Source: a virus (Duplodnaviria; Heunggongvirae; Uroviricota; Caudoviricetes). From it: DNA of 64,000 nucleotides. Positions 1 through 64,000 of the stretch are shown here, one piece after another. Every line of letters begins with the position of its first letter. Position 1 is the first letter of the stretch. The stretch is from the IMG/VR virus record IMGVR_UViG_2713896905_000004, positions 1-64,000 of that record. One strand, 5' to 3'. Under the pieces are notes generated by a model. It saw only the letters and a program-made list of their open reading frames with translations. It was not told where the DNA came from and did no database searches. Made by a program: the position numbers and the translations under genes.

Positions 1-152
1 GGTATGGTTTTTGGTCAGATACCCCTGATATGGAAGTTAAAACATTCGATGCATACGTAGACGGAAAAAAAATCGCAACATTTACGCTACGTAAGGCCGC
101 AGAGCTTTTCAACGCGGCACCTGAAGATGGCTGCCTGAAGCGCGCAAAATGA
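1..152 (+). CDS. 3' end of an upstream phage gene (partial, C-terminal ~50 codons)
   Basis: Open frame entering from the window edge and ending at TGA 150-152; followed by the first tail-region gene. Confidence 0.3.
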   Translation, partial: YGFWSDTPDMEVKTFDAYVDGKKIATFTLRKAAELFNAAPEDGCLKRAK

Positions 153-210
153 CCTGTCACAAATGACTACTCGTAGAATCGGTTAACACACCAGATTCTA
201 CGAGGTTTCA

Positions 211-777
211 ATGACACCACGACAATTACTCGAAGACGTCAAATCCCGCTTCACACCTTTGATTGCGGATGAACCTGCCTTACTGGAATCCCTGCTAAGA
301 AAAGCATTGGGAACCTACCAGGATAGGGCGGGGCACATCAAGCGGATACGCTTCACCGATCAGGCCAGTAAATCACTTGCTTGCCCAGCTGATTTTCTTG
401 CGCTCGTATCGGTTACAGATCACACCGGCGATCTTGTCTACTCCGATGTTTACGATGGGAATATCGAGCTTGAAGATACCCATCGAGCGGTATACCCACT
501 GAATGTGTCATATCTGGCTAATTTGCGTGATATGGATCTGGATAATGGGGAAGTGCCACCTGAAATCATTGGATTACTTTCTGACTATCTGGAAGTGTTA
601 ATCGCGATACCTAACACTGATCGCCTGCGAAGAATATCTATCGCGGGGAAACTCGATGCCAGCAATTTATCCGACGAGAACACGCTGTATCAGCGAAAGC
701 TGGATCTGGAAGAGAAAATGAGCGCAACAAGGGCAATTATCCCGGGAATTGTTCTTTTCTCATCCATGTTGAAGTGA
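211..777 (+). CDS. phage tail-region morphogenesis protein (188 aa)
   Basis: ATG start, compact same-strand array upstream of the Sit transglycosylase; no recognisable catalytic motif. Confidence 0.5.
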
Positions 778-787
778 GGGAGCTGAT

Positions 788-1399
788 ATGGGGCTTAATG
801 TTGCTTCAGTAAAGTCTTATGTATCTTCGGCATTAACGACGACATTATTTGGCTCCGGCGTTGGTGAGCGGGAAGTTGGTAAGCTGACGTCAATCATCAT
901 GAACAAAATGTTGTTCGCGCAAGGATGGCAGTTCTCTGTCGAAGTTGATGGACTGGAGGGGGCAGACTTCTTTGCCAAAGACATTACCTACCACGATTAC
1001 AGCATCGAATATGAAACGATTAAAATCGGCGGAGGGAATATCCTTCAACCAACGGAGCGTTCGCCTGGGCAGATAACAATGATGGTCAGGGATACCGTTG
1101 ATGGCCTCGTTTTGGACTGGTTTAAGACGGCAAAAAGTCGGGTGATTAATCCAGACGGTACCGGGAATATACCGTCTAAATATTTGCTCAATGTGCGTAT
1201 TTATCGGTTGCTGTCTTCCGGCTTAACCAAACTGGAAAATGAGATGACTGTATTCCCTGTCACTACCGGCGATGTCACCTATGCGCGGGATCAGGTTACG
1301 GAATTTAAGTCATTCCCAATGACCTTCGCATTGCACAGCACGTTTAACCAATCCTCAAGTTCTTTGGCTTCCCTTCTGGGCTTTAGTTTTTCTCTTTGA
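788..1399 (+). CDS. phage tail-region structural protein (203 aa)
   Basis: ATG preceded by GAGGGAG RBS; 10-bp spacing from upstream gene; in late tail operon. Confidence 0.5.
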   Translation: MGLNVASVKSYVSSALTTTLFGSGVGEREVGKLTSIIMNKMLFAQGWQFSVEVDGLEGADFFAKDITYHDYSIEYETIKIGGGNILQPTERSPGQITMMVRDTVDGLVLDWFKTAKSRVINPDGTGNIPSKYLLNVRIYRLLSSGLTKLENEMTVFPVTTGDVTYARDQVTEFKSFPMTFALHSTFNQSSSSLASLLGFSFSL

Positions 1400-1413
1400 A
1401 TTAAGGAGCAAGG

Positions 1414-2295
1414 ATGCTTTTACCCCTTTTCCCGCTACCATCGCGGCCAACTGAATTGATCCAGTTCCGTCAGCCAAATATTGCTGATGCGATGCGTTTC
1501 AACTCGATAACACCGGAGGAACAAGAACAACAGACAACGGCGTATTTAAAAGCCTTGCTGGCTGAACCCGCGAAACATGATCCCCTGACATGGACGGCGC
1601 AGGACCGGATTACCGCGTTATGGTGGATATTTACCGGCTCCCGTGAAACACCGGTCGAGACATTCACCTACACCTGTAAACATTGCGGTAAAGAGCATTA
1701 TTACGATTGCGATATGAATGCTCTGGCTGAAGATATCCAGGTCCTGGAAGTGGAACCGTTCATTGACGATATTGAGGTGTCTGTAGAGGGCGTGCCTTAT
1801 CAATGGCGTATCGTGCCGCTTGATGGTTGGGCAATGGAAATGCTGGAGATGCGCCGTGCAGCATTGCCACCTGAAGACGACGCGGAATTCAAAGAAGCGA
1901 TCGTTGATTTGCGTTTTTGGGAATTCGCTTATCAGTGTGAACTTTATAACGATGTTAGCGGTACTCGTGAAGAGCAGGCTGAGCGTCGTTATGAAACGAT
2001 CAAACGGATGGCCATTGATACTGAATTTATGAAGCTGGCGGCACACATCCGGCTGGCTCATGAAAAGCTCGAACATGGTTTACCGTGCTACATCGATAAA
2101 GGCGAAATGCGTCTTCGTCTCCCGCCGCACAAATGCCCAAACCAGGATACAAAGGAGTCCACAGAGGGTGCGTATACCCGTCTGTGGGTGCCCTTTCGGG
2201 CTACCGACTTCATTCCACAGGTGGGGATTGAAAAGCTATCAGACCTTAGTGTCCAACCTGGTTTTGTATGGGGGTATACCGATTCAGGACGCTGA
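1414..2295 (+). CDS. phage tail-region protein (293 aa) with a Cys cluster (CKHCG...YDCD)
   Basis: AAGGAG RBS before ATG 1414; operon context. Confidence 0.5.
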   Translation: MLLPLFPLPSRPTELIQFRQPNIADAMRFNSITPEEQEQQTTAYLKALLAEPAKHDPLTWTAQDRITALWWIFTGSRETPVETFTYTCKHCGKEHYYDCDMNALAEDIQVLEVEPFIDDIEVSVEGVPYQWRIVPLDGWAMEMLEMRRAALPPEDDAEFKEAIVDLRFWEFAYQCELYNDVSGTREEQAERRYETIKRMAIDTEFMKLAAHIRLAHEKLEHGLPCYIDKGEMRLRLPPHKCPNQDTKESTEGAYTRLWVPFRATDFIPQVGIEKLSDLSVQPGFVWGYTDSGR

Positions 2296-2376
2296 AAGGC
2301 TCACTGAATCCTATGCGTTTTTCCTGTTGGAGAAACTGGAAGAAAAACTTAAACCGAAGCGGTAGGCGATAAGATC

Positions 2377-62056: not shown

Positions 62057-62616
62057 TGAATTGCACTGCTCCTACTTGCATTCAAAATATGTAAATCTGC
62101 GTGTTTTTTGCGGGTATCCAGGAACTGCTGTTGCCATTTTGAAATAGACACCTGCGTTGGATTCCGTAGTGCTTGAGGGTGCGCGCCATGCCAATGAAGG
62201 CCGTTTTGCAGAGAACAGTCATAGCCGACTAATACCACTACTTCAGCCCCTGATTCAGCAGCCAGACTGATAGCCTGCGCGCCGCTATTTACCCCTTCCG
62301 CCGGTCCACAATATCTCCTGTACTCCAACGAAAATGATTTCGCCGCCGCCAGGTTGGCTGTCACTTTGCGGAATCTCCCTCCCGGTATGGTGGATCCGTA
62401 TTGCTTCCACCATGACAAATCACCGGCGTATAAGGCATAAATGTCATCGAACATCTGCCAGGAATTGTTAACCGCGATGATTGAACAGCCAGTTTTTTCT
62501 ATAGCAGCACAGTCCTCACGAGTGAGTGACGGTCCGCTACCGACACAAAAAACAGTCCTAGTCGCCCTGGGTGGTATGTTCATTCTCAGCTGCAAATTCA
62601 GCCTCCAGGCGAGCAT
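61954..62616 (-). CDS. Rossmann-like GxGPS protein, paralogue 2 (likely start near 62580)
   Basis: 'TVFCVGSGPSLTRED...CSIIAVNNSWQMF' and 'NSGAQAISLAAESGAEVVVLVGYD'; overlaps paralogue 1 by ~100 nt. Confidence 0.5.
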   Translation of the reverse strand: MLAWRLNLQLRMNIPPRATRTVFCVGSGPSLTREDCAAIEKTGCSIIAVNNSWQMFDDIYALYAGDLSWWKQYGSTIPGGRFRKVTANLAAAKSFSLEYRRYCGPAEGVNSGAQAISLAAESGAEVVVLVGYDCSLQNGLHWHGAHPQALRNPTQVSISKWQQQFLDTRKKHADLHILNASRSSAIQCFPRINLEAVIALLSSAVAQAPQTLLRRAECRL

Positions 62617-62779
62617 TCATTTCAGCGATTACAGGGTCCACTACAGCATCTGTTTCCTGTTCATTACGCGGCATGATCGATGCCAGCGATTCATAATTAG
62701 CCTTGGATGACACGACTATTCTCCCGATGTTAATGTGCGCTATATCAAATGGCGCATATGTACTAATTAATTTATTATT

Positions 62780-63358
62780 TTAAGCAGCATACAACCACTT
62801 GTCGCCGTTCAATACATGCTCAATAGCCTCACCCTTTTTAAGGCTTATGTATTCCAGGATGGCGGTTATCGCTTGTTCTGCACCATACGCAAGAACGACG
62901 TAGTAACCTTCCTCTCTAAGCCTGCGCATCCAGGCGATCTGCTCTTTCGTCGGGGCTTTACCATTTGGTTCTTTAAGCTCAATTCGCATGCCGTGATAAA
63001 TACCGCATGCTTTATCGAGACTCATGTCCGGATAACCTTTTTTCTGCCCTTCAGCTTTCATTTTCCCGGCGGTTGCTTTTGAACGTTTCCCTCCGTTAGG
63101 CGTTGCATGCAACAGCTCATAGATGTCAGGGTGCTTGCGTTCGAAGTAATCAAAAATGAAAACCTGCTCGAAGTGCTCGCAATTTCCGTCGCGCAGGTCT
63201 GGGTTCTTTGCCAGTGCTGCAAGTGCCTTCGCATGTGGAGAAACTTCTTTTACCGGCGCAAGCGATAAGAATGGATCCTTTTTGGTTTTTGGCCTGGACC
63301 GCCCCTTATTTCTACGCTCACTAAAAGCCTGAAACTCTTCCTCAGTAAAGCGCAACAT
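62780..63358 (-). CDS. VRR-NUC domain nuclease (PD-(D/E)xK superfamily)
   Basis: 'GYPDMSL...YHGMRIELKEPNGKAPTKEQIAWMRRLREEGYYVVLAYGAEQA' fits the VRR-NUC pattern. Confidence 0.7.
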   Translation of the reverse strand: MLRFTEEEFQAFSERRNKGRSRPKTKKDPFLSLAPVKEVSPHAKALAALAKNPDLRDGNCEHFEQVFIFDYFERKHPDIYELLHATPNGGKRSKATAGKMKAEGQKKGYPDMSLDKACGIYHGMRIELKEPNGKAPTKEQIAWMRRLREEGYYVVLAYGAEQAITAILEYISLKKGEAIEHVLNGDKWLYAA

Positions 63359-63360
63359 AA

Positions 63361-63606
63361 TCAGTCAAATCCTGCCGGTCGCATGCCATATTTACGCTGT
63401 TTTGCGGCCTGCTCTTCCCTGTGCCATTGCGCACACTCAGCGTCACAATAGATGCCTGATTCGATCGGTTCATTGCAGTAACGACACTTCCCTGTAAATA
63501 CCTGGCTCACGACCTGTGCCTGCTTTCTGATGTTATCGATGGCCATGTCTTTGAGAGCTTCTAACTGATTCATGCTCAGCTCTGCATCATCAACACGTTC
63601 TGCCAA
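63361..63606 (-). CDS. small zinc-finger protein (81 aa)
   Basis: 'CRYCNEPIESGIYCDAECAQWH'. Confidence 0.5.
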   Translation of the reverse strand: MAERVDDAELSMNQLEALKDMAIDNIRKQAQVVSQVFTGKCRYCNEPIESGIYCDAECAQWHREEQAAKQRKYGMRPAGFD

Positions 63607-63752
63607 TTTTGTTTCCTCGTGAAGAACCTACTTAAGGGCAGAATGATACATTTCACAATCAAAATTGCACTAATAATTTTCTTTTATTGAGTTAAATATT
63701 CAACAAATGACTAGCGGTAGAATCACCATCATCTATTTCTGGCAGGCTGACT

Positions 63753-64000
63753 ATGGCTACATCAATCACTACAACCCAAAGCACCCGGCAATATCCTCTG
63801 TCGCGGTATGACGACCGCAACATAGCCGATCCAATACTCAGGGCAGAGCTACGCAAAGAGGTGATGCTTATGTGTGAATCGAACGACAAGAATCTGACGA
63901 TTTATTACGTTCTTCCCGATGAGCAATATCGCCCGGATTTGCTGGCTTACCGTATGTGGGGCATAGCAGAGCTACGCTGGGTTGTGACGCTCGCCGCCGG
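63753..64000 (+). CDS. hypothetical protein, 5' part (runs off window)
   Basis: ATG 63753 opening a frame that continues to the window end. Confidence 0.4.
   Translation, partial: MATSITTTQSTRQYPLSRYDDRNIADPILRAELRKEVMLMCESNDKNLTIYYVLPDEQYRPDLLAYRMWGIAELRWVVTLAA

Follow-up and report, generated by a model that had tools for sequence, protein, structure and literature searches.

How much of this P1-like phage-plasmid is P1, and what fills the places where it is not? The question is raised by a stretch of 64,000 nucleotides of viral DNA (Caudoviricetes; IMG/VR record IMGVR_UViG_2713896905_000004, positions 1 to 64,000), which is meant as a whole when we write of the window. A first-pass annotation had read it as a P1-like phage-plasmid segment with several cargo substitutions, located at variable hotspots, relative to canonical P1. 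Alignment of the whole window with P1 did show insertions and replacements at the positions named. We estimate a probability of about 0.93 that the window covers about two thirds of the genome of a temperate, wild phage of the P1 type (Punavirus), maintained as a plasmid, in which cargo has been swapped at a limited number of exchange points by homologous recombination. One of these exchange points, between pacB and c1, holds a second module of the immI type (hereafter immI-2).

P1 backbone of the window and its exchange points

The reference used for whole-window blastn was P1 NC_005856 (Punavirus P1). It gave one collinear, antiparallel alignment, which runs from P1 46628 (LPsit/pmgC) through 1/94800 (lox) to 78208 (gene 26). 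The alignment accounts for 48.3 of the 64 kb, its blocks having 93.6-98.4% nucleotide identity. Of 75 P1 proteins, about 60 were matched full length at 89-100% identity (tblastn against the window). The backbone blocks are as follows.

159..10453: LPsit, pmgC, tub, pmgB, sit, pmgA, bplA, gp16, R and the constant N-terminal part of S; equals P1 46628-36304 reversed (blastn 95.8% over 10.3 kb; proteins 95.6-100%)
15979..21677: LPdar, lydA, lydB, hdf, darA, ddrA, a shortened ddrB and hxr (blastn and tblastn)
24291..36298: ssb, lyz (signal-arrest-release, SAR, endolysin), lydD/E, pro, prt, darB, ulx and lxc (97.5% over 12.0 kb; proteins 93-100%)
37154..40189, minus strand: mat, ref, c8 and cre (94.9% nucleotide identity)
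40598..42595: cra, the lox-cre regulatory region, loxP, imcA/B, coi, the Oc1 operators and c1 (41744-42595) (blastn, tblastn and motif searches)
44303..50667: pacB, pacA with the pac site, LPpac, lpa, Olpa, pdcB, pdcA, doc, phd, humD, a LexA box and lxr (93.7% over 6.4 kb)
57629..64000: OpmgT, pap, pmgS, pmgR, pmgQ, ppp, pmgP, pmgO, pmgN, pmgM, pmgL, LP26/LPpmgL and the start of gp26 (98.4% over 6.4 kb; proteins 94-100%)

Every backbone landmark on which the first-pass annotation had relied was present. By tblastn, Cre (39158-40186) was 99.1% identical to its P1 counterpart, C1 (41744-42592) 99.3%, Coi 97.1%, HumD 99.2%, PacA 95.5%, PacB 88.7%, DarB 98.4%, DarA 97.2%, Hdf 98.0%, Sit 95.6% and Lpa 99.3%, and Phd and Doc were each 100% identical. 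Lyz (98.9%) kept its N-terminal SAR segment. The genes for morphogenesis, lysis, Dar, packaging, lox-cre, C1/Coi, Phd/Doc and Lpa are intact and collinear with P1.

The regulatory sites agreed with this picture. The exact loxP 34-mer lies at 41009-41042. About ten C1-operator 17-mers had been announced; we found 13 within 3 mismatches of the consensus, against 0.22 expected from mononucleotide shuffles, and 11 of the 13 stand at positions of annotated P1 operators. The pac site (46629-46787, inside pacA) holds the seven TGATCA/G hexamers (methylatable) seen at first reading, in the 4+3 arrangement of P1. LexA boxes were located at 49948-49963 (humD/lxr) and 40963-40978 (before coi). Nine of the ten late promoters that P1 has in the covered region were kept, eight of them exact (among them LPsit at 161-179, and LPdar at 15992-16010, abutting a cargo boundary), LPs (8421-8439) having one mismatch. 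Backbone collinearity, lox-Cre, C1/Coi and their operators, pac and the Lpa promoters are all present, and on these features the window groups with the P1-like phage-plasmids (Punavirus).

Several parts of P1 were missing. When the P1 proteins were searched by tblastn, Cin, U', InsA, InsB, IsaB, Res, IddB, SimB/C, PmgV and UpfM/N/O had no counterpart in the window, and nothing in it aligned by blastn with P1 3469-9734 (res, IS5, mod) or with IS1. The reported lack of cin, IS1 and res/mod was thus borne out. The same is true of the invertible C segment: a cryptic one was also considered and rejected, as 8800-16100 contains no long inverted repeats, only short ones at chance level, so that no Cin-invertible segment with two fibre tips was found in the window. 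Because the C segment is variable within the genus (PMC6906374, PMC9603915), its absence is no bar to membership of Punavirus. The tRNA scan of the window found no genes; the P1 tRNA genes sit outside the window span. Also outside it are repA/oriR, parAB/parS and repL (P1 50.7-63 kb) and canonical immI. The repA/par and repL loci are present in the closest relative, the E. coli plasmid pLH85-a-A.

As regards what has been gained, extra genes had been placed between loxP and cre and between pacB and c1. Extra DNA does occur at both places, the first holding one open reading frame (ORF) of 131 aa in 412 bp, inserted more exactly between cra and cre, and the second, of 1.7 kb, being more exactly a full immI-type immunity module. 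These two sites, the exchanged S/cin region and the missing IS1 and res/mod made up the cargo list of the first-pass annotation; they stand, but the list was incomplete. It overlooked the shortening of ddrB, a cassette with a Tad2-like gene (23583-24290), an insert at 50669-51068, a large block at 51302-57628 (here called the region-8 block) and the genes that fill the isaB/IS1 and res/mod sites. The outcome is neither an uninterrupted P1 nor a phage of another family, since blastn shows the P1 backbone with insertions at the named positions.

These sites are known places of variation. Eight highly variable regions were described in 54 representative P1-like phage-plasmids (Zhao et al., PMC9603915), namely res-mod, isaA-IS1-isaB, lydC-cin-S, sim, rlf, repA-upfA, tci and pmgT-humD. 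The replacements in the window fall in the four of these regions that it covers, and the window starts at the edge of the sim region. Regions of difference, and an ant insert between pacB and c1, were also described by Venturini et al. (2019, PMC6906374). The substitutions are therefore real, but the hotspot picture is already published, and the window is a new mosaic of a well-known architecture.

Relatives, prevalence and competing readings

Different parts of the window have different best relatives. Window 1-25 kb best matches the Escherichia albertii plasmid NZ_CP117630 (95% coverage, 98.9% identity), including the allele with the macro-domain and waaK-like genes described below, and 39-64 kb best matches pLH85-a-A (NZ_CP100487; 96% coverage, 98.5% identity). 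The latter covers 55.0 of the 64 kb at 95-99%, including immI-2, a PacB paralogue, a 120-aa ORF and almost all of the region-8 cargo. It lacks six of the cargo segments of the window. It has a cin-type recombinase, another fibre tip and a RelA/SpoT-domain gene at the place of the acetyltransferase of the GNAT family; the Tad2-like cassette and the 131-aa ORF are missing from it, and the central segment of its Ant is not that of the window. The combination found in the whole window occurs in no single database record, and each cargo allele recurs in other P1-like plasmids. Cargo boundaries are intergenic and adjoin conserved sites, as at 161 (LPsit), 15992 (LPdar) and 44283 (the operator directly after pacB). 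Neither a transposase nor an insertion sequence (IS) was detected by blastn and domain scans in any cargo block of the window.

Since the best relatives differ by region, the boundaries are intergenic at conserved sites and no transposase is present, we propose that homologous recombination between flanking backbone sequences exchanged the accessory alleles, the partners being other P1-like plasmids and also lambdoid prophages, the latter as one donor pool. No transposase would have been involved in these exchanges. IS-mediated acquisition is common in resistance-carrying P1-like plasmids (PMC6906374); as the window has no IS or transposase, it was rejected here.

Prevalence was taken from 5426 complete E. 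coli genomes by megablast with at least 80% of the query covered, genomic position being checked in a handful of records. The backbone (window 25-50 kb) was found in 365 genomes (~7%), and the frequency of P1-like phage-plasmids in E. coli given in PMC6906374 is similar. The module between pacB and c1 was found in 279 genomes, the 131-aa ORF in 32 (32 of its 33 places being on plasmids), the arrangement of PacB paralogue, isaA and Tad2-like gene in 25, and the allele with macro-domain, Tfa, waaK-like, acetyltransferase and helix-turn-helix (HTH) genes in 9. The GNAT gene was present in 7 (19 with diverged copies) and always plasmid-borne. The exact region-8 arrangement occurred in 6, its pieces in 3396, mostly in chromosomal prophages. 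The macro-Tfa pair alone, at ~85% identity, also occurs in chromosomal prophages (112 of 135 matching places chromosomal).

These counts bear on a first alternative, that the differences are mostly laboratory peculiarities of the P1 reference (IS1, IS5, loss of immI-2, a fused isaA) and that the window is nearer to the ancestral or typical state. For IS1, IS5 and the pacB-c1 module, canonical P1 is indeed the odd one out and not the window element, because IS1 and IS5 are peculiar to the laboratory reference, where they are annotated as insertions (mod749::IS5 strain), and because the module is found in ~279 of the ~365 P1-like elements in complete E. coli genomes. The 262-aa isaA ORF of the window is annotated alone in pLH85-a-A, as this alternative would have it. 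However, it fits some sites only: the waaK/macro allele, the GNAT gene, the 131-aa ORF, the Tad2 arrangement and the region-8 arrangement are, by the numbers above, minority alleles, and many relatives, pLH85-a-A among them, do have cin and a C segment. As an account of most of the differences, we therefore place it somewhat below even chances.

Another alternative is a defective, plasmid-locked P1 derivative, or a P1 segment within a larger cointegrate or a chromosome. Such derivatives exist, as pJIE250-3, which is without lytic replication functions (PMC6906374), and P1-like DNA occurs within plasmids of 250-285 kb and in chromosomes. Also, repL, kilA, repA and par lie outside the window, ddrB is truncated and isaA is split. 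However, all structural, lysis, packaging and regulatory proteins of the window can be aligned over their whole length at 89-100% identity, and none is frameshifted; Lpa, nine late promoters and the pac site are undamaged; and no IS or foreign plasmid backbone is present in the 64 kb. We consider this alternative unlikely, and retain the reading of a wild temperate phage-plasmid with swapped cargo.

Besides the small number of records in which genomic position was checked, some observations weigh against that reading. With ddrB shortened and isaA split, not every backbone gene is P1-like. Chromosomal P1-like elements account for 308 of 2817 places. Plasmid lifestyle, inducibility and the coexistence of two immI modules are extrapolated from relatives such as pLH85-a-A. 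Finally, PADLOC 2.0 gave no significant defence-system match among 20 cargo proteins, its lone match being a marginal DarG for the macro domain (E=0.0035, 14.9 bits). As no PADLOC match was credible, a known defence system was given up as a reading of the res/mod or region-8 cargo.

The immI-type module between pacB and c1

Between c1 and pacB, 1.7 kb of DNA absent from P1 (42595-44304) form a full immI-type module with the following parts.

44283..44299, minus strand: C1-operator-like 17-mer TTTGCTCTAATGAATTG, upstream of the leader and only a few bases after the end of pacB; counterpart of P1 Oc4
44129..44208, minus strand: isrK-like leader (Rfam RF01394, 60.8 bits against a gathering cut-off of 50; match 44131-44208)
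44008..44106, minus strand: C4 antisense RNA gene, itself at 44019-44106 (Rfam RF01695, 75.9 bits against a gathering cut-off of 45, full-length model)
43743..43964, minus strand: icd-like gene, 73 aa, 80% identical to P1 Icd (NCBIfam phage_ICD_like)
42628..43746, minus strand: antirepressor Ant, 372 aa, Pfam ORF6N and KilAC, 56% identical to P1 Ant1

The operator-like 17-mer has 3 mismatches to the consensus with the GCTCTAAT core intact, and is a predicted C1 site. Three further immI-2 copies and one module at the canonical position, each from another P1-like element, keep this core. The leader carries a1 TTGGCCT (44176-44182) and b1 GTCTAAGG (44159-44166), both complementary to loops of the C4 RNA, and ends before the C4 gene in a terminator-like GC hairpin with a U-run (44129-44151). 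The two C4 loops are b' CCTTGGAC (44055-44062) and a' AGGCCAA (44041-44047). After the RNA come a second set of targets, a2 TTGGTCT (44008-44014) and b2 GTCTAAGG (43976-43983), the latter overlapping the Shine-Dalgarno sequence of icd. The icd stop codon overlaps the ant start (ATGA), as in P1. By this arrangement, the second immI would be under C1 control, and its own C4 would block translation of icd-ant through a2 and through b2 at the icd ribosome-binding site.

Compared with P1 immI (Oc4, a1/b1, C4, a2/b2, icd, ant1/2), immI-2 has the same order of parts, the same C4 fold (RF01695), a b2 that likewise lies on the icd ribosome-binding site, and likewise two C4 loops that are each complementary to one site before and one site after the RNA. 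It differs in position, P1 immI lying between sim and kilA, and in the leader, which is of the isrK type (RF01394) in the window and of the c4-a1b1 type (RF03163) in P1. Nor are the recognition sequences related, being AGGCCAA (a') and CCTTGGAC (b') in the window but CTGTCAA and TCACTAAC in P1.

Six copies were aligned, from the window, pLH85-a-A, RCS47, JL22, a Shiga toxin (Stx) phage and the canonical-position module of another P1-like plasmid. In all six elements, a1/a'/a2 pair in 7 of 7 positions and b1/b'/b2 in 8 of 8, with four different a and four different b sequences among them; heterologous combinations give only 8-14 of 15 pairs, and the C4 RNAs of RCS47 and JL22 only 10-12 with the targets of the window. 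For a'-a2 and b'-b2 together, all 90 of 90 cells are standard pairs, and 8 of the 15 pairs show compensatory changes on both sides. None of 500 shuffles did as well, and pairing fell to 21-52% when the partner was slid by 1-3 columns. As the RNA loops and both target pairs co-vary, there is strong comparative evidence for selection on the pairing of the RNA with its targets and for differences in specificity between the alleles. The specificity of C4 for its targets is the principle of P1/P7 heteroimmunity.

The inserts described as 'ant' between pacB and c1 in RCS47, JL22 and pTZ20_1P have the same position and gene content, and in RCS47 and JL22 the insert can be aligned with that of the window along its entire 1.7 kb (87-88% identity). 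Their C4 specificities differ from that of the window: a is TTGAGAC in both RCS47 and JL22 and TTGGCCT in the window, and b is GTCAAAGG in RCS47, GCAAAAGG in JL22 and GTCTAAGG in the window. The published annotations of the insert in these three plasmids mention no RNA gene, icd or operator.

The plasmid of E. coli 2020C08-115 (2176-2575) has an isrK-type immI module at the canonical immI position, upstream of kilA. The homologue of this module is the pacB-c1 module, not P1 immI, and it combines the b specificity of the JL22 pacB-c1 module with a different a. Thus, the isrK-type module can occupy either locus, and the a and b specificity sites reassort independently. Since pLH85-a-A carries both the pacB-c1 module and a canonical immI (P1-type C4, c4-a1b1 leader), the module is an addition in relatives, not a relocation.

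A terminated isrK leader, a small ORF and an antirepressor-like gene under RNA translational control also occur in the isrK-orf45-anrP locus of Gifsy-1, as set out in the section on that locus by Hershko-Shalev et al. (2016, PMC4825925). The window differs in having a C4 gene between the leader and the small ORF, an icd-like small ORF and a P1 C1 operator upstream; that section mentions no C4-type RNA. By analogy with the trans-activating short IsrK of Gifsy-1 (PMC4825925), it may be speculated that the terminated leader, with its a1 and b1, might act as a C4 sponge.

That the module is an inert remnant of a lambdoid (Stx-phage type) antirepressor region is improbable. In favour of a remnant are the leader, which belongs to the isrK and not to the P1 c4-a1b1 type, the match of 43078-44207 with Stx-phage regulatory regions at ~76%, and the published annotations, which list only 'ant' and hypothetical ORFs. 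Against it, all parts are intact and in the right order with a C1-operator-like site upstream, covariation of the RNA loops with both sets of targets is perfect over at least four specificities, most P1-like plasmids keep the module, and an isrK-type module also stands at the canonical immI position in another of them.

Two further observations concern this locus. In RefSeq, a partial 'ash family protein' pseudogene is annotated exactly over the C4 gene (pLH85-a-A 10753-10854, corresponding to window ~44019-44106). Because this label recurs in many P1-like plasmids, the mis-annotation of the C4 RNA gene is systematic. Also, the central part of the immI-2 Ant gene (43063-43487, minus strand) has no megablast match to the pLH85-a-A module, which is otherwise 96-98% identical, and this indicates shuffling of the antirepressor at the level of domains.

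Most natural P1-like plasmids carry the pacB-c1 module, and P1 and P7 are without it. To our knowledge, all immI biology has been derived from laboratory P1 and P7. What is new here is that the pacB-c1 insert contains a C4 RNA gene, icd and a predicted C1 operator, that its specificity sites co-vary and that it is common in natural P1-like plasmids; these points were not found in the descriptions of PMC9603915 and PMC6906374. We tentatively suggest, at close to an even chance, that the second immI is orthogonal to canonical immI and to its own variants through three-way compensatory evolution of a1/a'/a2 and b1/b'/b2, and that together with canonical immI it makes up a combinatorial, 'two-lock' heteroimmunity code. 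If true, whether one P1-like plasmid can displace or induce another would depend on this code.

Cargo at the other exchange points

The biochemical functions proposed for the remaining cargo are ones that we infer. By blastn against P1, the C segment, cin, lydC and the variable part of S are gone, and 10454-15978 stands in their place. The genes concerned are the following.

8916..12347, plus strand: tail-fibre gene S, first 518 aa P1-like (92.7%), distal part non-P1
12344..13213, plus strand: macro-domain protein, 289 aa (Pfam Macro, E=2e-19; phrog_2613, E=1e-136)
13232..13816, plus strand: tail-fibre assembly protein of the Tfa/gpK type (Pfam Caudo_TAP, E=1e-31), 35% identical to P1 U; replaces U and U'
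13871..15019, minus strand: waaK-like lipopolysaccharide (LPS) N-acetylglucosaminyltransferase, GT4, 382 aa (NCBIfam PRK15484, 657.9 bits against a cut-off of 618)
15006..15557, minus strand: hexapeptide-repeat O-acetyltransferase, Maa/LacA/WbbJ-like, 183 aa (Pfam Hexapep; all NCBIfam matches below their cut-offs)
15582..15911, minus strand: small HTH/XRE-like protein, 109 aa (weak Pfam HTH_31; phrog_20491, E=9e-25; 'XRE family transcriptional regulator' in a relative)

The distal tip of S has Gp34_trimer and Collar domains, HxH repeats and a lambda-Stf-type C-terminus, and parts of S match tail fibres of unrelated coliphages at 91-94%. For host range and receptor use, one fixed Stf-like tip with its own Tfa would thus take the place of the Cin-invertible two-tip segment.

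The macro-domain gene lies between S and the Tfa gene and is translationally coupled to S; its start overlaps the S stop codon (ATGA), and the C-terminal tail of its product carries GAHSH repeats that echo the GAHxH motif of the fibre tip. The family, with 2255 homologous clusters, for the most part labelled 'macro domain-containing protein' or 'phage tail protein', in Escherichia and Salmonella prophages, is very widespread in the fibre loci of these prophages. Being a widespread stand-alone family, found between fibre gene and tfa in many chromosomal prophages, it was rejected as an alternative fibre tip left over from the C segment. The protein possibly has a counter-defence role.

The three genes at 13871-15911 (minus strand) form an island of low GC content (34-38%), of which the HTH gene, at the lydC/cin position, is the first; the O-acetyltransferase gene overlaps the start of the glycosyltransferase gene. 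The waaK-like protein is 66-72% identical to Salmonella chromosomal enzymes and 60% to the E. coli one over 99% of its length. It is thus a full-length homologue of chromosomal WaaK (RfaK), the outer-core N-acetylglucosamine transferase of Salmonella and E. coli, and its low GC content resembles that of waa clusters. Unlike chromosomal waaK, the gene stands on a phage-plasmid beside tail-fibre genes, paired with an O-acetyltransferase and an HTH gene, and replaces cin. The two transferases probably modify the LPS core of the lysogen. One relative has, in place of the waaK-type island, a gene annotated as LPS glucosyltransferase, which suggests that LPS-core conversion genes are recurring cargo beside P1-type fibre genes.

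The region from ddrB to isaA has also been rebuilt. In the window, ddrB (19693-21381, plus strand) is 1.3 kb shorter than in P1 and encodes 562 instead of 995 aa; it has lost its first 447 codons as well as iddB, which is embedded in the P1 gene. It has a new short N-terminus, and relatives annotate the gene as 'bleomycin hydrolase'. The isaB and IS1 of P1 are replaced by 21678-22796, and a cassette of 708 bp (23583-24290; boundaries from blastn) splits a P1-type isaA.

21711..22805, minus strand: PacB paralogue, 364 aa (BLASTP against the window PacB: 37% identity over 251 aa of the ATPase domain, E=3e-56; phrog_5902)
22798..23586, minus strand: C-terminal isaA ORF, 262 aa, equal to P1 IsaA aa 60-320 at 96.6% identity
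23593..24294, minus strand: Tad2-like (DUF2829) protein, 233 aa (Pfam PF11195 Tad2-like, E=3e-21, 76 bits against a cut-off of 25)

The PacB paralogue has a terminase ATPase fold with altered Walker A (GKS to GET) and Walker B (DE to NA) motifs; about 100 unrelated residues stand in place of the nuclease domain, which is absent. The ORF is intact and also present in pLH85-a-A, and Pfam, PADLOC and PDB searches gave no match. It looks like a catalytically dead pseudo-terminase. In the Tad2-like protein, the C-terminal domain matches ModTad2, Tad2, SptTad2 and AcrIIA7 in the PDB (E=1.5e-12 to 5e-7), and an extra N-terminal domain of ~135 aa precedes it. This protein is a candidate counter-defence gene product of the Tad2 family, a fold that also includes AcrIIA7. 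The P1 isaA (320 aa) corresponds to 22798-24491 (minus strand) of the window, that is to a 60-aa ORF, the Tad2-like cassette and the 262-aa ORF. As pLH85-a-A annotates the latter alone, P1 'isaA' may be a fusion or an over-extended annotation.

Three smaller sites and one large block complete the cargo.

36402..37007, minus strand: GNAT acetyltransferase, 201 aa (Pfam Acetyltransf_1/7/10; phrog_10454)
40183..40578, minus strand: 131-aa ORF between cra and cre (phrog_20152, full length, E=1e-89)
50686..51048, plus strand: 120-aa ORF of the lxr-hot insert (phrog_5797, E=1e-76); also in pLH85-a-A
51302..57720, minus strand: region-8 cargo block, 14 small same-strand ORFs (blastn and domain scans)

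The GNAT gene is the sole gene in the 855 bp (36299-37153) that replace the 6.3-kb res-IS5-mod of P1; in relatives, this site holds SIR2, RelA/SpoT or type III restriction-modification genes. The 412 bp between cra and cre (40190-40601) are absent from P1 by blastn. The stop codon of their 131-aa ORF overlaps the cre start (ATGA), so that the ORF is probably co-transcribed and translationally coupled with cre. On the other side of cre, between it and c8, a C1-operator-like site with 2 mismatches, ATTGCTCTAATTATTTT, lies at 39121-39137 (minus strand); at the same place P1 has ATTGCTATAATTATTTG, with a disrupted core and further from the consensus. In the window element, c8 may be under C1 control.

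An insert of 400 bp (50669-51068) separates lxr and hot. The largest replacement (51302-57628, 6.3 kb) has exchanged pmgT/U/V, upfM/N/O and LPhot of P1 for lambdoid-type early genes. Its ORFs include a lipoprotein-like one, a DUF551 protein (53538-54761) and an Ead/Ea22-like protein (55503-56261), and the block also has a diverged homologue of the PmgT N-terminus at 57139-57720. All 14 belong to PHROG families lacking functional annotation; 45% of the block is common to P7 at 98.4% identity and 31% to Stx2c phages at 97.8%. LPhot has gone with the replaced DNA upstream of hot (51299-51420), and hot may for this reason be expressed differently.

The 131-aa and 120-aa ORFs, the PacB paralogue, the short DdrB and most region-8 ORFs had no Pfam, NCBIfam or PDB match and fall in PHROG families only. 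In the mechanism proposed here, no role is assigned to the GNAT protein, the cre-linked ORF, the apparently dead PacB paralogue or the 14 lambdoid-type early ORFs.

The value of the window is that of a precisely mapped case of one backbone re-equipped, with cargo absent from textbook P1. It offers leads for phage-plasmid incompatibility, superinfection exclusion and host range in immI-2, the Tad2-family gene, the LPS-core gene pair and the putatively dead terminase paralogue. The LPS-core pair beside a fixed fibre and the terminase paralogue are the lesser of these leads, and the second immI is the sole part that might repay experiments.

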